Of a stretch of DNA of 64,000 nt, positions 425 through 64,000 are shown piece after piece. This DNA is from a virus (Duplodnaviria; Heunggongvirae; Uroviricota; Caudoviricetes). Both the position numbers and the translations under genes were made by a program. The notes under the pieces were generated by a model that saw nothing but the letters and a program-made list of their open reading frames with translations, did no database searches and had not been told where the DNA came from. Within the stretch, counting starts at the first letter, position 1, and each line of letters starts with the position of its first letter. The stretch is taken from IMG/VR virus record IMGVR_UViG_2690316311_000019. One strand, 5' to 3'.

Positions 425-2212
425 TGTCAGGCATTCAGTATCGCGGGATTACGTGGTGGGCTTGATGATGAGCGTGGCGCGCTAACTTTAAAGTATGTGG
501 AGTTTGCAAATGCAATTGACGACAAACGGGCTGAGTCATTTCTCAAACCAGCCGTTATCGTCTGGGAAAATGTCCCAGGAGTCTTGTCATCGGCAGATAA
601 CGCCTTCGGATGTTTCCTTGCCGGATTGGCTGGAGAAGATGTGCCATTTGAACCAGGTGATCGACCTGAATCAGGAAAAAGCAACGCGTTCTGGCGGTGG
701 GATGGCAAAACCGGTTGCCATGTTCCAAAGTGGCCGCAGTGTGGTTGTATTTATGGACCGCAGCGAAAAGTGGCCTGGAGAATCCTTGATGCCCAATACT
801 TCGGAGTGGCACAACGACGCCGACGCGTGTTTGTTGTCGCAAGTGCTCGAACAGATCTCGATCCCGCAACGGTACTTTTTGAGTTCGAAGGCGTGCGCCG
901 GAATATTGCGCCGAGCAGAGGCGAGGGGAAGGAAACTACCAGATATACTTCAAACATCGCTATCAGAACTTGCGATGATACAAACATAATTGCCATGGCA
1001 CATGGGCAAGGAGGGGCTGAGATAAAAACCGATAATTCGGCACCAACTTTGACATGTAACCATGAAGCACCAATTGTATTGCTCGGCGACGGTAGAATGC
1101 GCCGTCTTACCCCTGTCGAATGTGAAAGGCTGCAAGGTTTTCCTGATTGGCATACGTTGATCCCTACGGAAAAGCGTAAAAAAGTTAATTCAGATGAACT
1201 GGCATATCTGCACAATCACTATCCAGATTTAAGCGAAGAAGAGGCCGCAATGCTTGCAGCTGACGGACCGCGTTACAAAGCGATCGGCAATAGTATGGCA
1301 ATACCAGTAATGCGCTGGATTGGCGATCGGATTACTAAGGCCGTATGTCGGCAGAAAGAAGGAAGTGAAACAAAAGAGCGAAAAGTTAAACCAGCGGCAG
1401 AATTCGAACGGTCCATATTCAAATGGGCTGGTGGAAAATTTGGTGTTCTGGAACAAATCTTTCGCTATTTGCCAGAAGGGAAGCGCCTGATTGAACCTTT
1501 CGTTGGTGGCGGAGCTGTCTTCATGAATGCCGGATACCAGGAAAATCTGCTAAATGATGTGAATGCTGACCTGATTAACTTTTACAAGACTCTGCAACGC
1601 GAGGCGCATTCACTTATCACTCTGGCACATCGTTTCTTCCAGGACTACAACACACAGGAAGGATACCTGGCAGTACGGAATGCGTTTAACAAACAAGTCT
1701 ATGATGATTTACATCGCGCAGCGGCGTTTTTGTTCCTGAACCGACATTGTTTTAACGGATTGACGCGTTACAACCAGGCCGGTGAGTTCAATGTCGGTTA
1801 TGGGAAGTATAAAACTCCGTATTTCCCATTACAGGAGATGGAAGCCTTCCTCGGTGCGGAAGGGCGGTCTGAGTTTGTATGCGGTGATTTTGCAGCGGTG
1901 ATTGAAGCTGCCGGAGAAGGAGATGTCATCTTTTGCGATCCGCCGTATGAACCGCTTCCAAATACAGAGGGATTCACGAACTATTCCGGTCATGACTTTA
2001 AGTTTGAAGAGCAAAAACGCCTGGTGTCTCTGTTGACGGATGCTCATCGTCGAGGTGCAAAGGTTCTCATTACTAACAGTGGCGCGCCAAACATCAGAGA
2101 GCTTTATCATGACAGTGGCTTCAGAGTGGAACCTCTTTTTGCCAGACGTTCTGTGTCTTGTAAGGGGGACACTCGAGGTGTAGCTCATGACGTTTTGGGT
2201 ATATTGCTCTAA
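2..2212 (+). CDS. dmt: Bifunctional DNA methyltransferase Dmt, 5'-partial (frame open to window edge): C5-cytosine MTase motifs IV-X followed by Dam-like N6-adenine MTase domain
   Basis: CQAFSIAG (motif IV Cys at nt 425-427), ENVPGV, QRRRRVFVV, LQGFPDW, GNSMAIPV; C-terminal domain with KWAGGKFG, EPFVGGGAV and DPPY; stop TAA 2210-2212. Confidence 0.8.
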   Translation, partial: ELSHAKRIPAWVMSHPLRHVFLQGYLDTDGTPSGKAGFRINSVSSALAWGVAGLSQTCGYVSSVSFIEVEPKKVIEDRVVNQRNYYQVTICPQKLSRKSRLAHGMLLRTVKEFKSVGLDTVYNIEVEGDHSYILNGAVVHNCQAFSIAGLRGGLDDERGALTLKYVEFANAIDDKRAESFLKPAVIVWENVPGVLSSADNAFGCFLAGLAGEDVPFEPGDRPESGKSNAFWRWDGKTGCHVPKWPQCGCIYGPQRKVAWRILDAQYFGVAQRRRRVFVVASARTDLDPATVLFEFEGVRRNIAPSRGEGKETTRYTSNIAIRTCDDTNIIAMAHGQGGAEIKTDNSAPTLTCNHEAPIVLLGDGRMRRLTPVECERLQGFPDWHTLIPTEKRKKVNSDELAYLHNHYPDLSEEEAAMLAADGPRYKAIGNSMAIPVMRWIGDRITKAVCRQKEGSETKERKVKPAAEFERSIFKWAGGKFGVLEQIFRYLPEGKRLIEPFVGGGAVFMNAGYQENLLNDVNADLINFYKTLQREAHSLITLAHRFFQDYNTQEGYLAVRNAFNKQVYDDLHRAAAFLFLNRHCFNGLTRYNQAGEFNVGYGKYKTPYFPLQEMEAFLGAEGRSEFVCGDFAAVIEAAGEGDVIFCDPPYEPLPNTEGFTNYSGHDFKFEEQKRLVSLLTDAHRRGAKVLITNSGAPNIRELYHDSGFRVEPLFARRSVSCKGDTRGVAHDVLGILL

Positions 2213-2219
2213 TAAATTT
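2203..2219 (+). promoter_or_regulatory. C1 repressor operator (ATTGCTCTAATAAATTT) overlapping the dmt stop codon
   Basis: Exact 17-bp match to the P1 C1 operator consensus; partial inverted copy immediately downstream. Confidence 0.7.
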
Positions 2220-2393
2220 ATTAGTGTAATATCACCTCAATGAATCGTGATTTATAGAGCGATTTAGCTGTTAGCCGCGACAGGCGCGGCGGTAAGCATG
2301 GCTGGGCCTAGTCCTCCCAGACAAACCACCGAGTTGCCAGGTTGACCATGCGCCTAAGTGGCAACGCCGAAGTGCGTTACGAGCGTCCAGTTT

Positions 2394-2419
2394 GCCCATC
2401 TTCGGGTGGGCGTTTTTTT
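2394..2419 (+). terminator. Rho-independent terminator (GCCCATC-TTCG-GGTGGGC + T7)
   Basis: 7-bp GC-rich stem, tetraloop, followed by run of 7 T. Confidence 0.6.
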
Positions 2420-2603
2420 CAGGGTTTTCGTCATGGTTAGCGACTTTGCGGCGGTTTAGAAACTGACCATTAAAGTAAATGCAAACGATGATCTGATGAT
2501 GGTAGCGGCCTAAGAAGCCAGATGCCATGGGGTATGAGTCGTCCCCCGTCAAAAAATCGACCGCAGAGTGTCCCCGTCTGTGTATTAGGGAACGGGGAGG
2601 CAC

Positions 2604-2678
2604 AACAGGTAAGGGCGCTGGTGTGATTAACCAGATGAACGAGAAGGGGCCATCTGTTGGTCAGCGTCCTTTCCTGTT
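2604..2678 (+). repeat. Hairpin element E0 of a 4-member family (arms AACAGGTAAGGGCGCTG / CAGCGTCCTTTCCTGTT)
   Basis: Imperfect inverted repeat whose arm sequence is shared with elements at 3136, 3507 and 3779. Confidence 0.5.
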
Positions 2679-2884
2679 GCGTTTTCTTTTCAGCGTAACA
2701 GCGGTGCTTAACAGCACTTTGGGTACAGTTCCACGAATTTACGGGTATATCCCGTCATGCTGAAGGCGCTAATCACGCTGGAAGCCAGGGTTATGCATCC
2801 CCTGTTACCGAATTGCAGCCAGGGCGCGGTGCGCCGAAAAGCATACGGAGGTGGAAGCCCTCGCCGGAGACGTACCCGGCAAGT

Positions 2885-2959
2885 GATGGTGTAGCTCAGC
2901 GGTAGAGCAGTTGGCTGTTAACCAACTGGTCGGTAGTTCGAATCCACCCACCATCGCCA
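2885..2959 (+). tRNA. tRNA-Asn (anticodon GTT)
   Basis: Cloverleaf read by hand: acceptor GATGGTG/CACCATC, D-arm GCTC-AGCGGTA-GAGC, anticodon stem GTTGG/CCAAC with loop CTGTTAA, T-loop TTCGAAT, discriminator G + CCA. Confidence 0.8.
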
Positions 2960-2964
2960 CTTTA

Positions 2965-3051
2965 GGGGAGTTAGTCCGTAGGGGTAGCGGGGTAGACTGT
3001 AAATCTACTGTCATTGCGACTCGGGTGGTTCGACTCCATCACTCCCCACCA
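2965..3051 (+). tRNA. Type-II (long variable arm) tRNA-Tyr-like, anticodon GTA; D-arm pairing irregular, may be a pseudo-tRNA
   Basis: Acceptor GGGGAGT/ACTCCCC + A + CCA; anticodon stem GTAGA/TCTAC with loop CTGTAAA; variable arm and T-arm resemble E. coli tRNA-Tyr. Confidence 0.5.
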
Positions 3052-3055
3052 CATT

Positions 3056-3131
3056 GCCGATTTAGCTCAGTTGGTAGAGCAGTCGCTTTGTAAGCGAATG
3101 GTCAGCGGTTCGATCCCGTTAATCGGCACCA
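3056..3131 (+). tRNA. tRNA-Thr (anticodon TGT)
   Basis: Acceptor GCCGATT/AATCGGC, D-arm GCTC-AGTTGGTA-GAGC, anticodon loop TTTGTAA, T-loop TTCGATC, CCA end. Confidence 0.75.
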
Positions 3132-3135
3132 ACAT

Positions 3136-3210
3136 AACAGGTAAGAGCATTCTCCCTTATGGGGCCTGGCTTAAATGCATCGAGTGCTCTTACCGTTGTG
3201 ATGAAGTGCA
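3136..3210 (+). repeat. Hairpin element E1 (arms ACAGGTAAGAGCATTCTC / GAGTGCTCTTACC, conserved 3' tail GTTGTGATGAAGTGCAG)
   Basis: Immediately downstream of tRNA-Thr; arm and tail shared with E2/E3. Confidence 0.5.
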
Positions 3211-3506
3211 GATCTTAGAAGCAACCAGAAGATAAGCATCTGGCTTCACAACATAAACCGCAGGAACGACCAATAAACGGTAGTCCGTATGGAGAACACC
3301 CCGTTGAGGAAGAGGCCTGGCCGGAACCGTAACCGGCGACTGGTAATGTGTGTAAATGGAGCGAAATATGTGGGCGTTTAACGGGATACGGGTTGTAACA
3401 GCGATTATTAACGGCGAACTTAAGTATTCACGTTTCGAGACAAATGAACGTGATGGGAAATGTATTGGTGTGCGGTTAGTAAGAGAATACGCATAACAAC
3501 TACAAC

Positions 3507-3606
3507 GTTGAGAACACTGGCGTAACGGGGTCATATCCCAATCTACGAATAAATGTTGCGTTGCCGCGTGACAACCAGTGTTCTCAACATTGTGGTGAAT
3601 GCACAG
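3507..3606 (+). repeat. Hairpin element E2 (perfect 14-bp stem GTTGAGAACACTGG / CCAGTGTTCTCAAC; loop contains GTAACGGGGTCATATCCCAATCTAC; tail ATTGTGGTGAATGCACAGG)
   Basis: Loop motif and tail shared with E3. Confidence 0.5.
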
Positions 3607-3778
3607 GCTGATGTGCCGCAACTACAGTAGTGCGCGCTTTGCGGGGCTTGCTACAACCCTGTGTCGGAGTTCAGCACCGACCATCACAGTTTGATTCTCT
3701 GGCATGAGCATAACGCTGAAATAAGTCCAGTCTGGTGCGGTCTGATCACCCGCCGTTAGCTCCACGAAACGGAGCACG

Positions 3779-3864
3779 TAACAGGTAAGAGCATTCTCCT
3801 GTAACGGGTTCATATCCCAATCTACAGGTCCACCAAGAATGCTCTTTCCGTTGCGGTGAATGCG
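3779..3864 (+). repeat. Hairpin element E3 (arms of E1 + loop motif of E2; tail GTTGCGGTGAATGCGG)
   Basis: AACAGGTAAGAGCATTCTCC ... GTAACGGGTTCATATCCCAATCTAC ... GAATGCTCTTTCC. Confidence 0.5.
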
Positions 3865-4004
3865 GCTAAGCGCACGCGGGGAAATGGTTATATCTGTCCA
3901 TTATTTCTCCTTGTTTCCACGTCCACGGTGGATAACCAGCCAAAGGACACCGGGAGGAACCCGGCACCGCAGCTTTTTTATTCGTTAAATAATGGAGTGA
4001 GAGG

Positions 4005-4241
4005 ATGCAGAACAATCCGAACAAATGTCGAACGCTATGGGTGCGGTTATATATTTATGCCGTCCTCTGTTTGATTGTGTCACTGGTTCTGTATGTTTGG
4101 CTTTTGCCAAATATGATCTCATCTAACAGCACAATACTTGTATTGTTGGGAGTCCTTCTCGCGCTCATTTACCCGGCTTTCGCAGTAGTCTTTTTTCGTG
4201 AAAAAACCAGGAAATTAATTAATGAAAAAAACGTTGATTAG
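4005..4241 (+). CDS. upl: Small two-helix membrane protein upstream of plp
   Basis: 78-aa hydrophobic ORF with GAGAGG RBS; position immediately upstream of lipoprotein gene. Confidence 0.5.
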   Translation: MQNNPNKCRTLWVRLYIYAVLCLIVSLVLYVWLLPNMISSNSTILVLLGVLLALIYPAFAVVFFREKTRKLINEKNVD

Positions 4242-5049
4242 TGCAGCGATTATTTTGGGTTCTTTATGTCTGACCGGATGCGATCGGGTAGAGCCAGGTA
4301 ACGTAGGGATCAAAGTAAATAAGCTGGGGGATGATAAAGGTATCGGTGAAGTAGTTGGCGTTGGTCGCTACTGGACAGGCTTGAATACTGAAGTTTATAT
4401 CTTCCCGACCTTTAAGCAAATGAAGACATACGATGAGCCGTTCAGCTTCCAGATGAGCGACGGAACAACCATTGGTTACCACATCGGCGTAGCCTACAAG
4501 GTTGATCCAGCAAAAGTCACAACGGTATTTCAGACCTATCGCAAAGGTGTAGATGATATTACTGATACCGATCTACGCCAGAAGGTTGCAGATGCTCTGA
4601 ACCGATTAGCCAGCAAAATGACCACCGACAAATTTATCGACGGTGGCAAATCTGAATTGCTTGATGCAGCCCTTAAAGACATTCAGGAAGAAATGACGCC
4701 AATCGGCATTCAGGTGATGAGCCTCTCTTATGTAGGTAAGCCAGAATACCCGCCAACAGTTATTGACAGTATTAACGCCAAAGTCACGGCAAACCAAAAA
4801 ACCCTGCAACGCGAGCAAGAGGTCAAACAACGTGAAGCAGAGGCCAACATGCTGCGCGCGGAAGCTGCCGGACAGGCTGATGCTATTCGCACAAAAGCCC
4901 AGGCCGAAGCTGATGCCATTCGTTTACGTGGTGAAGCTCTGCGCCAGAACCCCGGTGTTATGGACTTGGAAGCGATCAACAAATGGAACGGTACATTACC
5001 GCAGTATATGACCAGTAATACCGCTGTTCCGTTTGTTCCGGTGAAATAA
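4222..5049 (+). CDS. plp: Lipoprotein, SPFH/band-7-like
   Basis: Lipobox LCLTGC after signal peptide; 275 aa. Confidence 0.65.
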   Translation: MKKTLISAAIILGSLCLTGCDRVEPGNVGIKVNKLGDDKGIGEVVGVGRYWTGLNTEVYIFPTFKQMKTYDEPFSFQMSDGTTIGYHIGVAYKVDPAKVTTVFQTYRKGVDDITDTDLRQKVADALNRLASKMTTDKFIDGGKSELLDAALKDIQEEMTPIGIQVMSLSYVGKPEYPPTVIDSINAKVTANQKTLQREQEVKQREAEANMLRAEAAGQADAIRTKAQAEADAIRLRGEALRQNPGVMDLEAINKWNGTLPQYMTSNTAVPFVPVK

Positions 5050-5076
5050 AAGCGTAAGCAAAATTGGCAGTAATCC

Positions 5077-5152
5077 GGCCCTTTAGCTCAGTGGTTAGAG
5101 CTGGCGACTCATAATCGCACGGTCACCGGTTCAAGTCCGGTAGGGGCCACCA
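5077..5152 (+). tRNA. tRNA-Ile2-like (anticodon CAT, ileX-type, lysidine-decoding candidate)
   Basis: Acceptor GGCCCTT/AGGGGCC, anticodon loop CTCATAA, T-loop TTCAAGT, ACCA end; near-identical architecture to E. coli ileX. Confidence 0.7.
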
Positions 5153-5426
5153 TATTTGGTTGTAACACGGCGTCTGGCACATGCGTCGTTAGCGGTCTGG
5201 TGACGTTAAAGGGGTAACCTTTCCCCTAGCTCAGGCAACAAACCAGGTAGCCGGAATGTGCAAGCCCCGTTCATAGCGTCGGACTGCGGATTCACCATCC
5301 TGGCGATTCGGTGTGACAACCGGGAAGAGTCCGGCGCATTAATCCTGATTTTCTGGTGATGACTCATATCGTTAGGAGTGATTTGAGTATGCCGATTATA
5401 TCTGACATTCAGCACGCCTGGGTGGA

Positions 5427-6797
5427 GTGCTAATGTCTGCATCCCCTCTTGAATCCATGCCAAATTCCCTTAGTGCAGAACAAGCTGTACTTGGTGGCTT
5501 AATGCTTGATAACTGCCGCTGGGATGAAGTTGCAGATCGTATAGTTGCTGATGATTTTTATACCAGTGCTCATCGTGAAATTTTCAGTGAGATGGAGAGG
5601 TTATTAAGTCATGGCAAACCGATTGATTTGATAACACTTGCTGAAGCACTTGAACAGAACGGTAAATTAGAACGCGCCGGTGGTTTTGCGTACCTTGCGG
5701 AGATGTCAAAGAACACGCCCAGCGCGGCAAATATTTGTGCTTATGCGGATATCGTTCGTGAACGCGCGGTTGTTCGTGAAATGATTTCCGTCGCAAATGA
5801 AATAGCTGAAGCTGGATATGCGCAGGATGGCAGGGGCAGCAATGAATTGCTGGATATGGCCGAGCGCCGCGTTTTTGAAATAGCTGAAAAACGACAAAAG
5901 AGCGGTAGTGGTCCAAAAGATATCGCCAGCATTCTCGATGCAACGGTATCTCGCATAGAAGAGTTGTTTCAGCGACCGCATGATGGTGTAACGGGGCTTG
6001 ATACCGGATTTACCGATCTCAATAAGAAGACGGCAGGACTTCAGGCGTCCGATCTCATTATTGTCGCCGCCCGCCCATCGATGGGGAAGACTACGTTTGC
6101 GATGAATCTCGTCGAAAATGCCGCAGTCCGTAACGATAAGCCCGTATTGGTTTTTAGCCTTGAGATGCCGAGCCACCAACTGATGATGCGCTCACTGGCT
6201 TCTCTTGCACGCGTTGATCAGACTCGTATTCGAACAGGGCAACTTAACGACGAGGATTGGGCGCGGGTTTCTGGCGCAATGGGGATTCTGTTGGACAAGC
6301 AGAATATTTTTATTGATGACTCAAGCGCCCTGACACCTACAGAGCTTCGTTCCCGCGCTCGTCGTGTTTATAAAGAAAATGGTGGTTTGAGCATGATTAT
6401 GATCGACTACCTGCAACTTATGCGCGTCCCCGAGCTGCAAGATAACCGAACGCTGGAAATTGCCGAGATTTCTCGCTCACTGAAGGCTTTGGCGAAGGAA
6501 TTACAAGTACCGGTGGTGGCATTGTCACAACTTAATCGATCGCTTGAACAGCGTGCGGACAAACGACCGGTAAATTCAGATTTACGTGAATCAGGAGCAA
6601 TTGAGCAGGACGCAGACCTGATCATGTTTCTGTATCGCGACGAAGTTTATCACCCGGATAGCGAAATGAAGGGCATTGCCGAGGTAATTATCGGAAAGCA
6701 ACGAAATGGCCCAATTGGCACGGTGAGATTGGCTTTTAACGGCCAATACTCACGGTTTGATAACTATGCTGGTGCTGACTGGCAAGAGGATTATTAA
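5427..6797 (+). CDS. ban: Replicative DNA helicase, DnaB family (Ban)
   Basis: 456 aa; Walker A PSMGKTTFAMN, DnaB motifs (SLEM, ALSQLNR, IEQDADLIMFLYRDE). Confidence 0.85.
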   Translation: MLMSASPLESMPNSLSAEQAVLGGLMLDNCRWDEVADRIVADDFYTSAHREIFSEMERLLSHGKPIDLITLAEALEQNGKLERAGGFAYLAEMSKNTPSAANICAYADIVRERAVVREMISVANEIAEAGYAQDGRGSNELLDMAERRVFEIAEKRQKSGSGPKDIASILDATVSRIEELFQRPHDGVTGLDTGFTDLNKKTAGLQASDLIIVAARPSMGKTTFAMNLVENAAVRNDKPVLVFSLEMPSHQLMMRSLASLARVDQTRIRTGQLNDEDWARVSGAMGILLDKQNIFIDDSSALTPTELRSRARRVYKENGGLSMIMIDYLQLMRVPELQDNRTLEIAEISRSLKALAKELQVPVVALSQLNRSLEQRADKRPVNSDLRESGAIEQDADLIMFLYRDEVYHPDSEMKGIAEVIIGKQRNGPIGTVRLAFNGQYSRFDNYAGADWQEDY

Positions 6798-7795
6798 TGC
6801 AATGGAATGAGGAAAAGCCGATGAACATCCTGATCATTGGGCGAAAATTTGAAGCTATCAGTGATGTGAAAACATATACGGAAATGTGGGCTTACAACCT
6901 GGCCTGCGCCTTTAGTGAGGCAGGGGTAACATTGCAATTCCATCGTCCATATTCCCCCGGCGTCGAAAGCCCGGAGGATTATGTTGAAGCTGTGTTGACC
7001 GCTGCGACCTCGTGTTCTGCGAAAGCCATTTTAGCGCCAGGATTGCGGTATTTTACTACGGTGCCCAGGGAAATAGGCGTGCAACTGCGTCGTCGATTCA
7101 CTGGATGGGTAGCCCAGGTATACGACGGTTCTATGCTGGATTCGGCACCAGTCGATATTACTTTTACTGTCCGCGATGATACCTGGCGGTACCTGGATAA
7201 TCCCGGCAGGTTAGAGCGTCATAATCGCTTTAACAAACATGTTGGATGGGCAGCGAATCAGGATCTGTTCCATCTGGAAACCAAAACAGACGATGTTCTG
7301 CGTATTTTTGTAGACCACGCTGCATTTGATGTTAGTGGGTTTGATCACTCCTTAAGTATCCTTATGAACCTTCAGCGTCTGACCGTTCCGTATGAGGCCA
7401 GAACGTTGACCGATGACGGATTGATTACCATTGATCCGGGGAATATATCGGTAACCCCATACAGACGGACGCCGGTACCAGCAACCGAATTTGCAGCTGA
7501 ATTGCGTAAGAGTGACGTGTTTATCGTTACGCATCCCGAAAGCCTTGGATTAACTGTACTTGAGGCGGCAATGTGCGGGGCGTTGGTATTAACGCCTCCC
7601 GATTGTCTTCCGCCAGATCGCCTGGCTTTGGTGAACCATATGGTTATCAAGTCGCGGATTGATTGGGATGAGGTTATTGCTCGCGTTGATCGCGTGAAAA
7701 ATGCTGAAAAGGTCCAGTGTCACACCTGGTCGGCAATTGCGGAAAAGATGCTTGAGACGTTTGTCACGCAGAAACCGTCGCGCGGTAACGGATAA
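6797..7795 (+). CDS. Putative glycosyltransferase (GT-B fold, group-1-like)
   Basis: C-terminal VFIVTHPESLGLTVLEAAMCGALVLTPP resembling GT4 E-x7-E motif; start overlaps ban stop (alternative start 6821). Confidence 0.4.
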   Translation: MQWNEEKPMNILIIGRKFEAISDVKTYTEMWAYNLACAFSEAGVTLQFHRPYSPGVESPEDYVEAVLTAATSCSAKAILAPGLRYFTTVPREIGVQLRRRFTGWVAQVYDGSMLDSAPVDITFTVRDDTWRYLDNPGRLERHNRFNKHVGWAANQDLFHLETKTDDVLRIFVDHAAFDVSGFDHSLSILMNLQRLTVPYEARTLTDDGLITIDPGNISVTPYRRTPVPATEFAAELRKSDVFIVTHPESLGLTVLEAAMCGALVLTPPDCLPPDRLALVNHMVIKSRIDWDEVIARVDRVKNAEKVQCHTWSAIAEKMLETFVTQKPSRGNG

Positions 7796-7817
7796 AAAAT
7801 TGAACCCGTCATAACAG

Positions 7818-7841
7818 AAAAGCCCGAACGCCGGGCTTTTC
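7818..7841. terminator. Bidirectional hairpin terminator between convergent genes
   Basis: AGCCCG-AACGC-CGGGCT flanked by A-run and T-run. Confidence 0.55.
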
Positions 7842-10988
<3,147 letters not shown>

Positions 10989-38569: not shown

Positions 38570-39358
38570 GTGACTTCAGTCAGAATCATCACACGCCCGG
38601 TACGGATGGATCCCTTTTCAAATATTCCATGGACGGCACAGTCTGAGTACCGGGCGCTACCTTCAGTTGTATTGCTAAGCCGCCGCTGGTGGCTTTTCTT
38701 TTTTGTAGGGGGCGCTATGGATAAGAAAATATGCGTTGTTTCGATGAGCGTCGGCAAACCGGCGTCAATGACTGCTGCATGGATCAATAACGAGCTGATA
38801 ATGGCTGAGCGGACCAGCTACCCTGAACGCCGCCGCGATATGGAACTCCAGCTGCTGCGCGAATTGCGAGAAAAAGAGGAAAAGGGTTTTATCGTGCTGG
38901 TGGAAGAGGAAAACAGCTTTATTACTGGTCGAGTTGGCCAGCGTGTAAGGTTGCGCGATCCCTTCATGAACAGCAGGCCGGTACTAATTGAGGCAATGCA
39001 GATTTATAAGGAGCTGGAACGCCAGAAAGCAATCAAGTTACCGCGCAAGGAATCCGGCAAATACATCCTTCACAAAAGCATCTTCGATTCCGAACACGAT
39101 AAAAAAGGCGATGAATTTTTCAACATCAACTGGAGCGAAATAACGACAGAACATGTTCTGACGTTACTATGTTGCTTTGCGACGGAATACAACAACGTTG
39201 CCAGCGCCGACTACATCAGGGCAATGGCTGGAGAAGTTGAGGCCAATCAGGATACGTCGTTACTAAGTCCCCTAGTGAATATAATTCAAGCTACTCATGA
39301 AATTGCCGCGCGGAAAGTGCCTAAAGGTTCATTAACTGGTAAAGATAATTATCTTTAA
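38570..39358 (+). CDS. mat: Hypothetical protein in mat position (alternative start 38717)
   Basis: 262-aa ORF downstream of ref. Confidence 0.4.
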   Translation: MTSVRIITRPVRMDPFSNIPWTAQSEYRALPSVVLLSRRWWLFFFVGGAMDKKICVVSMSVGKPASMTAAWINNELIMAERTSYPERRRDMELQLLRELREKEEKGFIVLVEEENSFITGRVGQRVRLRDPFMNSRPVLIEAMQIYKELERQKAIKLPRKESGKYILHKSIFDSEHDKKGDEFFNINWSEITTEHVLTLLCCFATEYNNVASADYIRAMAGEVEANQDTSLLSPLVNIIQATHEIAARKVPKGSLTGKDNYL

Positions 39359-39390: not shown

Positions 39391-40341
39391 CTAATCAATA
39401 AATACACGGAATGTCTCCAGCATCCCTTCAGGATCTTTATCCTCGTCACCTAATGATATTAGTCTTCTGGCAAGAAGTTTCACATCATCATCATCTTTGA
39501 TGTAACCAACCTGATCATTTTCAAAATAAATATCAATTATTTTTAGGATTTGCTCTTGTGTAAAGTGAGTGAGCTTTAATAATTTTGCTACAACTCGATG
39601 TGTTGTAGCAAAACTGCCAGAGTGTCGTAATTCATCTATAGTGAGATTAACTTCCATTTCCACCAAGTTACTAGCTTGAGGAAAGTGCTCGCCTATAAAC
39701 TCTGATAAGCGGGAATAGATATGTGGTTCTGAATTTTTCTTTTTTTTCCACTCATGCTTCAAATATTCATTCATATCATCCTTTATAAAGGCACTTTTAT
39801 AATCACCATCTTCAGTTATGATATATATATCCTCACCGTCTGGTATCGCTTTTAGCAAACATTCCCAATTAACTGCGTCACCATATGATTTATTTTTGCC
39901 TGGCGGGTTTCCAAGATCAAATCGAAGTTTCCCCTTATCTATTGTTTCATCATCAGCCTCTATTTTAGATGCTGCATCAAAAATCCTTTTAATTACAATA
40001 TCGGCAGCCAAAGCCTCCTCTTTAAACAATTTCTGGATATCTGTAATAATTTCATTCTTTAACCTACCTGCTTCTATAACCTTATCATTAAATTGTGAAT
40101 GCTTTTCATGTTGCCTAAAAATCTGGGGAAGCGCGGGCTTATAATCTTTTGTTATTTCCTTTATGGTTTCAGAGAGAACTTTAGAACGATTTCTCCAGAA
40201 CTCATTCACTAAAAGCTCTGGTAACCAAAGTTTTAAACGACCATATTGATGTAAGGCAAATACTTTATCCAGCTCATCTAGTTTATCTCTACCCATCCTG
40301 TAAAATTCTAAATATAGATTTGTATCAATAAAAACATTCAT
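39391..40341 (-). CDS. PIN-like nuclease-fold protein, AT-rich cargo gene in the res/mod slot (candidate defence / exclusion gene)
   Basis: N-terminus MNVFIDTNLYLEF, later acidic motifs DIYIITEDGDY; 316 aa; GAGGA RBS; visibly lower G+C than flanks. Confidence 0.55.
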   Translation of the reverse strand: MNVFIDTNLYLEFYRMGRDKLDELDKVFALHQYGRLKLWLPELLVNEFWRNRSKVLSETIKEITKDYKPALPQIFRQHEKHSQFNDKVIEAGRLKNEIITDIQKLFKEEALAADIVIKRIFDAASKIEADDETIDKGKLRFDLGNPPGKNKSYGDAVNWECLLKAIPDGEDIYIITEDGDYKSAFIKDDMNEYLKHEWKKKKNSEPHIYSRLSEFIGEHFPQASNLVEMEVNLTIDELRHSGSFATTHRVVAKLLKLTHFTQEQILKIIDIYFENDQVGYIKDDDDVKLLARRLISLGDEDKDPEGMLETFRVFID

Positions 40342-60800: not shown

Positions 60801-61221
60801 CCTGTGCGAGATTTATTACGTAACTTCTGCGGATTTGCTGAGTAACAGGGAAAATCCGATACAACGGGTTAATGAACGAGTCGCCATGCGTAACCATGAC
60901 GTTGAAATGCCACAGCCGTTCTCCTTTACCCATATATTCAGTGGGTATGTACAACCATTCACTGTTTTCGCCCTGTTCAGCCGACGTCAGACAACGTTGT
61001 TCGCCTTCAATCACTGTCGTTGGCTTCTGAACATCGCGGATCCAATATCTGACCGTTGCGCCGCGCAAAAACGGGAATTTAGACCGGTATTTGAACGGCA
61101 CCCGGATGAAACCCGGTTTAATTTCCACATCACCAAGTTCTAAATGCGTGATGTCCTTGCGTTTTAGCAAATAGCGATCGGCTAAGGCTAACGCAAGAGC
61201 GCATACACCCCAGCCAATCAT
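60778..61221 (-). CDS. lydB: Putative antiholin / lysis regulator
   Basis: 147 aa overlapping holin gene. Confidence 0.45.
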   Translation of the reverse strand: MIGWGVCALALALADRYLLKRKDITHLELGDVEIKPGFIRVPFKYRSKFPFLRGATVRYWIRDVQKPTTVIEGEQRCLTSAEQGENSEWLYIPTEYMGKGERLWHFNVMVTHGDSFINPLYRIFPVTQQIRRSYVINLAQDVSDDEK

Positions 61222-61547
61222 TTCCCACCTCCCTTTTTCACCAAACTTGTAAGAACATTCAGAATGCTATCGATATTCACTCGTTTCATCCCTGAAATCA
61301 CCTCATGACCGTTATTGCTGGCTATCGTTACCATTAAGTACGTAATTGATAACTCCCAGCCCTCGTGTTGCCCCAATAGGTACGCCACCGCGCCAGCTGT
61401 CACTGCAACAAAGATCTCCGTAACCAATCCCAACAAATTGCCAGACTGGCGACCGTCTCGGACATCCATCAGGAACGTGCCTATCCCACCAATTACTGAA
61501 AGCAGGAGCGCAATAGCAACTGGAGCTAATTCCTGTGTGTCAAGCAC
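61218..61547 (-). CDS. lydA: Holin
   Basis: 109 aa, two hydrophobic helices, charged C-terminus; GTG start with AGGAGGG RBS. Confidence 0.6.
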   Translation of the reverse strand: MLDTQELAPVAIALLLSVIGGIGTFLMDVRDGRQSGNLLGLVTEIFVAVTAGAVAYLLGQHEGWELSITYLMVTIASNNGHEVISGMKRVNIDSILNVLTSLVKKGGGK

Positions 61548-62302
61548 AAGTTCCCTCCTACGTTGTCAGGAGGTAATGGTATGCAAAGTAACTTCTCAAC
61601 CGGTCATGCAAAGACAACAAGCGGAAAAAGAAAAGCAAAGCCTGCTACAGCTCGTCAGGGATAAAACTCAGCTCTGGGACTCACAGTTACGGCTAGGCAT
61701 TATTTCCGTTCAGGGTAAACAAAAATTAACCGAGTGGATTCTCTATGCGCAGAAAGTCGAATCCACGGATACCTCCATCCTTCCAGTAACGTTTCCCGAA
61801 AAGCCGGAATGAGGAAAGGCCCGGAATCGGGCCTTAATTAATATCTATAAGCTCAACAAATAAGAGCTAACAATTTTGTTAATTTCCTCTGGAAATAATG
61901 CATTGTGCTTATATATACCTGAAGCTATATTAAAGAGCGTCATGTAAAAAATAAACCAATCAATTAAATCTATTTTCAACAAACAAGTCAAAATTTTTAA
62001 CAGATATGTATAGAAATGGCAAGCCATAAATTAATAATGACATCCTTAATAAGTCTAAAGAAACACTAAATAGATAAAATATAAATTATTACATCCAAAA
62101 ATATAGAAAGTGTTGGCAATCTTGCAACTCATTATCAATACAATATTGACATCCCTTTAGCGCTCAGTTTAAAATTAACATTTGTGTTTACATTGTGCGT
62201 TGATTTAGTTTAGCAGGAACGCAGTAACACACTGATGATTATTGTTTTAATTATAATGTCAATATATAAACATAGAAACCAAAAAATATAGGCAGTTGCA
62301 AT

Positions 62303-62875
62303 ATGTTATGTTACTTAATAGCTATTCACTTTGTCATCTTCGGGAATTCAAAAGCTCTATTGAGCTACTGGATGGCTGAAATCATCAGGCGTGAAAAAAT
62401 GGATGTTTGGCGACTATTAAGAGAGAAGAAGCAGCGCAATCGGAATTTCCTTTTCTGGTGGAGACTGGCTAATGAAATGTATATTAATGGCAATAAATTA
62501 CATAAGAAAGCAGCCAGAAAGTTAAACAATAATATAATTAACAGATTTGGTTGCGAAATTGGATTGGGCGCAAATATTGGAAAAGGTTTAACAATTCCCC
62601 ATCATACTGGAATTGTTGTTCATTTTGCTGTTGATGCTGGTGAAAATCTGGTTTTGCGACAGAATACTACCATTGGACAGGTAGATGGTGACATGCCTGG
62701 TTCAAGAGTAAAAATTGGTAATAACGTTGATATCGGAGCTAATTGTTGCATCATTGGATTATCACGTAAAATTGGGGATAATGTAAAAATAGGTGCAATG
62801 TCTTTTATAAATAAAGATATACCATCGAACTGCACATATATAACAAAAAAGAGCGGTGTTGTATTGTATAAATAG
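62303..62875 (+). CDS. Hexapeptide-repeat acetyltransferase (serine-O-acetyltransferase / WcaB-like), AT-rich cargo; true start may be 62372 or 62399
   Basis: Left-handed beta-helix repeats: FGCEIGLGANIGKGLTIPHHTGIVV...IGNNVDIGANCCII...IGDNVKIGAMSFI. Confidence 0.6.
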   Translation: MLCYLIAIHFVIFGNSKALLSYWMAEIIRREKMDVWRLLREKKQRNRNFLFWWRLANEMYINGNKLHKKAARKLNNNIINRFGCEIGLGANIGKGLTIPHHTGIVVHFAVDAGENLVLRQNTTIGQVDGDMPGSRVKIGNNVDIGANCCIIGLSRKIGDNVKIGAMSFINKDIPSNCTYITKKSGVVLYK

Positions 62876-62883
62876 AGTACATG

Positions 62884-62911
62884 AAGCCATCAATATTTCT
62901 ATCGATGGCTT
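62884..62911. terminator. Bidirectional hairpin (AAGCCATC-loop-GATGGCTT) between convergent acetyltransferase and U
   Basis: 8-bp stem, T-rich 3' flank. Confidence 0.45.
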
Positions 62912-62918
62912 TATCCTT

Positions 62919-63496
62919 TTATTGCGGGGCGACTGGCCACTCAACATCCGATGCTACTGTTGTATCAACACGATTCAACAATACCCGATATGTCTTCCAT
63001 GCAGTCAGTAACGATGCCTCTTCCTCCGTCGCAATATCCAAATCTACGGCATCCTGAAGTGGCGCAATATGCTCACTGGCCATCTGCATCAGGCTGTTTT
63101 TTGTTTCTTCCGCCTTCCGGATCCGGAACAGTTTTTCTGCTTCTGCATCTTTCACCCAGGCTGTGCCGTTCCACTTCTGAAACTCCCCTTCCGGGGATAA
63201 CCAGGTGACATTTTCCGGTAATGGGCCAAGTTCAGAAATAAATAACGCGTCGCCGGAAGCCACGTCATAGACGGTTTTTCCCCGATGGTCTTCAACGAGA
63301 TTCCACGATGCCTCATCACTGTTGAAAACGGCCACGAAGCCAGCCGGAATATCTGGCGGGGCAATATCGGTACTGTTTGCAGGCAGACCTGTATGAGGTG
63401 GAATGTATGCATCACCTTCACCAATAAACTCATTGGTTCCAGCCAGTAGATTATAAATTTTTATGGTCCGTGATTGTTCACTCATTCTGAATGTCA

Positions 63497-63497
<1 letters not shown>
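62919..63497 (-). CDS. U: Tail-fibre assembly chaperone
   Basis: 192 aa; Tfa-like; directly downstream of tail-fibre gene. Confidence 0.65.

Positions 63498-64000
<503 letters not shown>

Follow-up and report, generated by a model that had tools for sequence, protein, structure and literature searches.

The right end of a 64,000-nucleotide stretch of viral DNA (Caudoviricetes; IMG/VR record IMGVR_UViG_2690316311_000019; the whole stretch is called the window below) carries a gene for a hexapeptide-repeat acetyltransferase, lying in an AT-rich island between the holin gene lydA and a tail-fibre assembly gene. A first, sequence-only reading of this DNA had placed the island where phage P1 has cin and its invertible tail-fibre segment, and had likened it to lysogenic-conversion modules that modify surface polysaccharide. 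The locus raises two questions: how an acetyltransferase gene came to lie among the tail-fibre genes of a P1-like element, and what it might do there. Our preferred explanation, to which we assign a probability of about 0.55 as a whole, is that the locus represents the variable tail-fibre region of a P1-like plasmid prophage of the pO111_2 type and that the acetyltransferase is a moron, a cargo gene for a cytoplasmic sugar O-acetyltransferase brought in by replacement, the cin side having been lost in a separate deletion. The sequence is public and annotated, and a published paper has noted the gene in a P1-like plasmid, without explanation. What we add, as far as sequence comparison can tell, is that the gene moves together with a fibre tip from one element to another, P2-like or P1-like, and that the loss of cin in this lineage was an independent event.

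Origin of the locus

Open reading frames (ORFs), Pfam matches and blastn comparison placed the right end of the window in a P1-like plasmid prophage, where it covers the region from dar/lyd to the tail-fibre genes. The closest relative was pO111_2 of Escherichia coli O111:H- 11128 (NC_013370), which is near-identical (99.9–100%) and matched positions 61000–64000 with 99.93% identity. The 1079-bp island itself (61840–62918) was 100% identical in pO111_2 and in at least seven other E. coli plasmids of ~90–100 kb each. Base composition, ORF analysis and folding confirmed the AT-rich island, the intact 190-aa acetyltransferase and the convergent terminator hairpin where the sequence-only reading had seen them.

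In P1, the assembly genes U' and U are only 28 bp apart, whereas the window lineage has the acetyltransferase island between them and a replaced U/Sv tip: island, tfa and stf tip stand in place of P1 U and the 3' part of Sv (Table 1). The tfa/stf part was about 90% identical to lambda tfa/stf DNA, so the assembly gene is of the lambda-Tfa type and not U, as it had first been named. The flanks are those of the P1 C segment (dar/lyd on the left, Sc-R-baseplate on the right), and the U'/U hairpin is also the same. In pO111_2 the hybrid stf gene is intact (2850 nt) and P1 homology restarts inside S, in its 0.6-kb inverted-repeat part; this plasmid has kept the constant part of the gene, the right inverted repeat and cixR.

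A 1798-bp cassette that begins with the acetyltransferase start codon, takes in the hairpin and tfa and ends ~610 nt into stf (window-equivalent ~64108) was 94–96% identical to DNA of P2-like prophages in O104:H4 C227-11 and other Shiga toxin-producing E. coli (STEC). We counted the presence of such sequences among 5426 complete E. coli genomes. The acetyltransferase gene occurred in 530 of them, at 533 chromosomal and 66 plasmid places. The spacer of 463 bp that precedes it in the window was found in 65 genomes, on P1-like plasmids only and on no chromosome, and a search for its source returned no matches outside P1-like plasmids. In the P2-like prophages examined, the acetyltransferase gene lies just beyond the tail-fibre assembly gene and is convergent with it. 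These comparisons show a mobile cassette that occurs in both P2-like and P1-like elements and in which gene and fibre tip move together. By recombination, P1 U and the 3' part of Sv were swapped for a foreign block made up of spacer, acetyltransferase, hairpin, lambda-type tfa and a lambda/P2-type stf tip.

The locus fits a known pattern of AT-rich cargo genes at tail-fibre hotspots. In P2-like phages the cargo hotspot Z/fun corresponds to 'moron position 2' (PMC3573123; bioRxiv 10.1101/2024.10.15.618418), and the neaT gene of a CFT073 prophage, which encodes an acyltransferase affecting surface behaviour and virulence, occupies this position between G and FI (PMC3573123). Like the window gene, neaT lies beyond the tail-fibre assembly gene, runs opposite to the tail genes, has ~30% GC and encodes an acyl- or acetyltransferase thought to alter the cell surface. 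The two are analogous, not homologous: NeaT is a membrane AT3 protein (PF01757), whereas the window protein, in which PF01757 found no match, is modelled as soluble helices followed by a beta-helix and would be cytoplasmic. The window also differs from the P2 moron site in that the cassette has here moved into a P1-like plasmid.

We made two further observations on the P2-like prophages that bear the cassette. Compared with the canonical P2 gene order, the FI-FII-E-E'-T-U block of those in O157:H7 86-24 and O104:H4 C227-11 (1900–10100 of the compared stretches) is inverted relative to D and V-W-J-I-H-G. The O157:H7 86-24 copy is further decayed, with IS30, IS3, a frameshifted T, a truncated tfa and no H.

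The loss of the cin side can be read from the alignment with P1. Homology (98.6%, blastn) extends through lydA and its upstream spacer to 61607, restarts at 61608 inside U' (at about nt 330) and stops at 61839. The P1 DNA absent at the 61607/61608 junction amounts to 2.87 kb and comprises lydC, cin, cixL, Sv' and the 5' part of U'. We found neither a cix-like sequence nor useful microhomology at this junction, and its left end lies upstream of cin; we therefore ruled out a product of Cin and regard the deletion as illegitimate.

Within the 64-kb window, tblastn with the Cin and Sv' proteins of the phage-plasmid JL22 gave no match, and no cix-like 20-mer was found at up to four mismatches. The features that define the P1 Cin/cix C segment (cin, two inverted cix sites and two Sv-U sets) are thus not present in the window, and U' is truncated. 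The earlier statement that Cin and the alternative U'/Sv' genes are missing stands for cin and Sv' but not for U', of which the last 68 codons remain. Just outside, pO111_2 carries an orphan cixR with a single C-to-T core change (TCTTAAATCAAGGTATTGGA) at 10137–10156 of the compared stretch, equivalent to ~64976–64995 in window numbering and ~1 kb past the window end. The right 0.6-kb inverted-repeat copy is also kept in pO111_2, although cin and cixL are gone. The deletion would lock the phage into the lambda-type fibre, leaving the U' stub and, outside the window, the orphan cixR.

The exact deletion junction was present in 49 of the 5426 genomes, always on plasmids of ~90–100 kb (O111, O26, O157 and similar strains), and also in phage vB_EcoM-Ro157c2YLVW. 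Set against the 65 genomes with the island spacer, this means that about three quarters of the island-bearing P1-like plasmids belong to the lineage without cin. The deletion marks a P1-like plasmid lineage of STEC, the phage of which, if still viable, is fixed in host range.

That replacement and deletion are distinct is shown by relatives that have undergone only the former. In JL22, a cin-positive phage-plasmid with the same island and tfa/stf replacement as the window, lydC-cin-Sv'-U' is intact and followed by the island, tfa and hybrid stf, and both cixL and cixR are perfect. With lydC, cin, Sv', a full U' and both cix sites, its segment is invertible, whereas that of the window lineage is not. 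The JL22 acetyltransferase gene accordingly lies inside an intact invertible C segment, between the convergent assembly genes U' and tfa. In plasmid pLH09-a-D (NZ_CP100548; 1400–5810 of the compared stretch) the same island is present with the C segment inverted, so that the orientation of the acetyltransferase gene flips. By this comparison, two separate events lie behind the locus, a deletion on the cin side and a replacement on the U/Sv-tip side, and the island does not occupy the place of cin and the invertible segment, as had been thought: JL22 and pLH09-a-D carry the gene inside that segment.

In pLH09-a-D, it is the lambda-type Sv/tfa side that adjoins cin, and S-U' and the acetyltransferase gene point the same way. 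Several genes of this plasmid are annotated as frameshifted, which could be an assembly error. A separate observation concerns the island sequence, which diverges by ~5% between plasmids with an identical deletion junction and 98–99% identical flanks; the window and Ro157c2YLVW share 94.7% identity over it. This divergence despite near-identical flanks suggests allele exchange by recombination, or AT-rich DNA that drifts faster.

A probable self-contained cargo gene

With a GC content of 0.314, the island is the lowest of all 1079-bp segments in the 64 kb (mean 0.483, standard deviation 0.036), about 4.6 standard deviations below the mean. It is made up of the non-coding spacer (GC 0.27), the 190-codon ORF (GC 0.35) and the hairpin at 62881–62914. 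The AT-rich stretch upstream of the gene, first put at about 0.7 kb, is AT-rich but shorter, the non-coding part being the 463 bp at 61840–62302; the GC content of 61548–61839 is ordinary (0.47). The gene is absent from P1 and present in JL22, Ro157c2YLVW and pO111_2, and its surroundings stand out in base composition (GC 0.31 vs 0.48), as expected for a moron.

Upstream of the gene, a consensus scan returned a candidate sigma-70-like promoter on the + strand (TTGACA-18-TAAAAT, 62146–62175; 11/12), both hexamers of which are kept in diverged copies of the spacer. In the P2-prophage context a different promoter-like site precedes the gene (10/12 in the scan). The hairpin between the convergent acetyltransferase and tfa genes had a free energy (dG) of -17 kcal/mol on the + strand and -16.4 on the - strand (z -4.7 and -3.7), and none of 200 shuffled sequences was as stable; from its fold it is likely a bidirectional terminator. 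The gene runs opposite to the late tail operon and has its own promoter-like element and predicted terminator, and therefore expression from the prophage seems probable, starting at its own promoter and ending at the shared hairpin. Low GC content, candidate signals of its own and direction make a moron the most likely description. The earlier view of a foreign, self-contained cargo gene beside receptor-binding genes is borne out by these comparisons.

Pairwise ratios of nonsynonymous to synonymous substitution (dN/dS) among the P1-like and P2-like alleles were 0.07–0.26, mostly 0.15–0.21, which indicates that the gene is functional and under purifying selection. We also considered a functionless passenger riding with the cassette of tail-fibre tip and chaperone. 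In E. coli the gene always moves with tfa/stf, its AT-rich DNA may be silenced by H-NS, and at least one copy is frameshifted (in pLH09-a-D, possibly a sequencing artefact). These dN/dS values speak against a passenger, as do conserved homologues (41–69% identity) across many genera and the copy in the O157:H7 P2-like prophage, where the reading frame is intact within a decaying element with IS30 and IS3 interruptions and a frameshifted tape-measure gene. We regard a mere passenger as very unlikely.

The acetyltransferase and its possible substrate

Databases label the protein 'serine O-acetyltransferase'; it is called sacF in JL22 and falls into PHROGs family phrog_2154. Its membership in the left-handed beta-helix (hexapeptide) acyltransferase superfamily was supported by several lines of evidence. 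Family scans matched CysE-, EpsC- and WcaB-like models, and Pfam Hexapep was matched with E 1.9e-5 and 24.6 bits, under the gathering threshold (GA) of 27. The AlphaFold2 model (predicted local distance difference test score, pLDDT, 95) consists of five helices (residues 2–82) and then a left-handed beta-helix, in which short strands recur regularly from residue 84 to 180. A fold search of the PDB gave 99 matches at E<=1e-3, of which the best 50 (E<=2.3e-6) were all beta-helix serine acetyltransferases (CysE), and the strongest PDB sequence matches were also all CysE; the matches had a template-modelling score of ~0.7 and 20–29% identity. Like CysE and WcaB/EpsC, the protein combines a helical N-terminal region with a left-handed beta-helix and a catalytic histidine with an acidic partner, and its motifs 'WWRLA' and 'IG.G..I.H..G.V' are typical of the CysE-like subgroup. 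It presumably assembles as a trimer.

JL22 annotates a shorter protein of 158 aa that starts at Met33. We ruled this start out: L19 and E26, which lie upstream of it, are near-invariant in 40 homologues, so that conservation takes in the N-terminal 32 residues; the N-terminal helices are modelled with pLDDT >90; and the P2-prophage copy has a Shine-Dalgarno sequence, AAGGAG, 7 bases ahead of a GTG start.

The database label would make the gene a genuine serine O-acetyltransferase, i.e. an auxiliary metabolic gene that, in the lysogen or in the lytic cycle, either boosts the supply of O-acetylserine and cysteine or disturbs CysB signalling. The annotation, the uniformly CysE-type PDB matches in sequence and fold and the conserved catalytic pair (H100, equivalent to CysE His158, is histidine in 39 of 40 family members; E85, equivalent to Asp143, is D or E in all 40) agree with this. 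However, the fold matches do not discriminate, because solved structures of sugar-specific CysE-like enzymes are scarce, and they cannot separate serine- from sugar-specific enzymes. The protein scored far below the CysE equivalog cutoffs (65.6 vs 210.65 bits for TIGR01172; 42.2 vs 397 for NF008349). It also missed those of EpsC (77.5 vs 150 bits) and WcaB (56.5 vs 194.65 bits), which are resemblances only, and in fact all NCBIfam equivalog cutoffs.

In CysE, Asp157, Arg192 and His193 bind L-serine according to the structural literature. These positions are not kept: P99 stands at the place of Asp157, where the family is variable, His193 aligns with a gap, and arginine occurs at the Arg192 position in 9 of 40 members. 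SATase_N gave no Pfam match in the protein, the N-terminal helical domain being cut to five helices, and the C-terminus (...VLYK), variable across the family, lacks the CysK-binding tail that ends in Ile. Given scores below every equivalog cutoff together with the loss of serine-binding residues, full N-terminal domain and C-terminal tail, the sequence places the protein outside bona fide CysE, in a separate, uncharacterised subfamily, phrog_2154. We consider serine acetylation in the cell to be quite unlikely as its role.

The homologues offer some hints at another substrate. They were found at 41–69% identity in Enterobacterales, Orbales and Pseudomonas/Halopseudomonas, and 39 of 78 lie more than 8 GC points under their flanks. 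Phage-type surroundings were seen repeatedly: the E. coli homologue lies at a prophage end after tail-fibre genes, that of Buttiauxella at a prophage end and convergent with a tail fibre, that of Citrobacter phage phiNP convergent with tfa and beside hicAB, and those of Salmonella and Proteus adjoin an integrase. The ESSI2_ev040 homologue follows an integrase and an Abi-family gene, and that of Xenorhabdus lies between an integrase and a tail fibre, beside a GT25 lipopolysaccharide (LPS) glycosyltransferase.

In a census of 77 loci, one per species, the gene directly downstream encoded NeuB+SAF at 6, Caudo_TAP at 4, an integrase at 2 and a GGDEF protein at 8 (a fixed Rahnella locus); upstream of some homologues were LPS kinases (WaaP-type) and GT2 enzymes. 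Homologues in Pseudomonas and Halopseudomonas are flanked by hldE-msbA-LPS-kinase on one side and neuB/pse-type genes on the other. Pseudomonas abyssi has, in this order, hldE, msbA, kinase, acetyltransferase, neuB, GT28 and cytidylyltransferase-aminotransferase, a series that by gene content is an LPS-core and nonulosonic-acid cluster. These contexts, a minority of the loci, favour a sugar substrate. A side observation concerns the homologue in Rahnella spp. Its chromosomal locus is fixed, its immediate neighbours are the genes for a POT-family peptide transporter on one side and a PAS-GAF-GGDEF protein on the other, and neither is a phage gene; judged by this locus, the family therefore includes stably resident, non-phage members too.

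On this basis we propose that the cytoplasmic beta-helix enzyme would use acetyl-CoA and its Asp/Glu85-His100 pair to O-acetylate a precursor sugar of an envelope glycan, candidate targets being the LPS core, the O-unit or an exopolysaccharide intermediate. Such acetylation might give the lysogen an altered surface, along the lines of lysogenic conversion or superinfection exclusion. A precedent for a prophage-borne enzyme of the superfamily is NeuO of prophage CUS-3, a hexapeptide-repeat O-acetyltransferase of the K1 capsule encoded near the tail-spike gene. A specific similarity to the window enzyme was not evident (the NeuD family model gave only 30 bits), nor did the 5' end of the window gene show a phase-variable repeat tract. 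The idea of a lysogenic-conversion module thus holds insofar as the comparative context appears to fit surface-glycan modification better than housekeeping serine acetylation; glycan O-acetylation and the surface change themselves are what we infer from that context.

Several points weigh against this proposal. Most of the species-level homologues have unrelated neighbours, such as the POT-transporter and GGDEF genes of Rahnella. Strains that carry the gene belong to many O-serogroups (O111, O26, O157, O104, O103), which argues against an O-unit-specific target. Lambda-type Stf tips bind a protein, OmpC, so the logic of directly masking a receptor is not obvious. The promoter and terminator are consensus predictions only. 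PHROGs lists phrog_2154 as 'unknown function', and the JL22 authors, who described the tfa/stf replacement, call the reason for a 'serine acetyltransferase' there unknown (PMC9603915). A literature search for characterised phage-borne 'serine acetyltransferases' brought up two items only, the JL22 paper and a table of cargo genes of the Citrobacter rodentium phage phiNP, and in the literature on pO111_2 we found nothing on the acetyltransferase.

The location of the gene would also suit a single-gene anti-phage or superinfection-exclusion function inside the cell, with a small molecule or protein of phage or host, and not an envelope glycan, as the acetylated target. The P2 Z/fun hotspot is known for defence cargo and for swapping of receptor-binding proteins (bioRxiv 10.1101/2024.10.15.618418; PMC3573123), and homologues lie beside the Abi-family gene in ESSI2_ev040 and hicAB in phiNP. 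Against this, no PADLOC model was matched (0 families in PADLOC-DB v2, whether for the acetyltransferase, for the U' stub or for the 60-aa ORF of the spacer described below), no conserved partner gene was found, and the non-phage members in LPS and nonulosonic-acid clusters hint at sugar chemistry. We hold intracellular defence to be unlikely.

A doubtful extension of the glycan proposal is that acetyltransferase, fibre tip and chaperone form one portable unit in which the enzyme modifies the envelope receptor or co-receptor that matches the tip. If so, a P2-like or P1-like phage that gains a host range would also shield its lysogen and burst from adsorption by fibres of the same specificity. 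In cin-positive P1-like plasmids, inversion of the segment would also turn the gene around with respect to the late S operon, so that its late expression would depend on which fibre type is made.

If glycan modification by the window enzyme is true, about 10% of complete E. coli genomes hold an unstudied prophage gene that could affect phage susceptibility, serology or host interaction; carriers include most of the sampled O157:H7, O111, O26 and O104:H4 strains. Its linkage to a swappable fibre tip would then be a tidy example of host-range and exclusion functions that move together.

Remaining features of the locus

Table 1. Positions in the window of the features from lydA to the window end
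Feature	Position	Strand	Basis
lydA holin gene, left conserved P1 flank	61218..61547	-	ORF; Pfam Phage_holin_3_3; 98.6% identity to P1 up to 61607
P1 lydA-upstream spacer, retained	61548..61607	-	Colinear with P1 to 9244 of compared P1 stretch
Fusion ORF, 78 aa: 10 codons of lydA-upstream spacer and, in frame, last 68 codons of U' (61608–61812)	61576..61812	+	Pfam, blastn, tblastn with JL22 U'
GC-rich 8-bp hairpin, native to the P1 U'/U intergenic region, bidirectional terminator-like	61816..61835	.	Fold; alignment with P1 and JL22
AT-rich non-coding spacer, GC 0.27	61840..62302	.	Composition
CysE/WcaB-like left-handed beta-helix acetyltransferase, 190 aa, intact	62303..62875	+	ORF, family scans, AlphaFold2, fold search
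Hairpin between convergent acetyltransferase and tfa, followed by U-rich tract on + strand	62881..62914	.	Fold
Lambda-type tail-fibre assembly gene tfa, in P1 U position	62919..63497	-	Pfam Caudo_TAP full length; ~90% identity to lambda tfa DNA
3' end (receptor-binding tip) of hybrid S/stf, runs off the window	63497..64000	-	ORF

The short ORF at the deletion junction had been taken for a boundary ORF of the island with an AGGAGG ribosome-binding site of its own. It matched only profile positions 55–131 of 131 of Pfam Caudo_TAP, and its in-frame composition (Table 1) identifies it as a fusion with the 3' remnant of U', not an island gene. A new gene with its own ribosome-binding site was ruled out as a fusion artefact of the deletion. 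The P1 late promoter LPdar, annotated at 9213–9231 of the compared P1 stretch, corresponds to 61576–61594 inside the retained spacer; the ATG of the fusion ORF is the first base of this colinear stretch, and the AGGAGG lies just upstream, in the lydA spacer. The ORF is probably a pseudogene, the remnant of the deleted half of the invertible segment.

The hairpin that follows it exists as first described and is more stable than shuffled sequence (dG -15 kcal/mol; z -3.7 for the - strand, -2.7 for the + strand), but it is the U'/U hairpin of P1 itself. Divergence from P1 begins just past it.

Within the AT-rich spacer, a 60-aa ORF at 61845–62027 (-) was rejected as an island gene: it is frameshifted in JL22 and Ro157c2YLVW, absent from pLH09-a-D and without a family match. 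Rfam returned no credible structured RNA in the spacer, the best match being cyano_tmRNA with 18 bits vs a GA of 70. In tfa, Rfam IS009 (RF02111) gave a full-length match at 62956–63154 (-), with 192 bits vs a GA of 117, wholly inside the 3' coding part; this 'small RNA candidate' family may be the conserved 3' end of lambdoid tfa genes.

The GC content of 1079-bp segments also dips in a second patch of the window, to as low as 0.346. This patch contains a gene for a 316-aa PIN_12/PIN_8-domain protein (39391–40341, -), adjoined by a 262-aa ORF without a Pfam match (38570–39358, +). Here the P1 backbone may hold a further insertion, whether cargo or defence-like.

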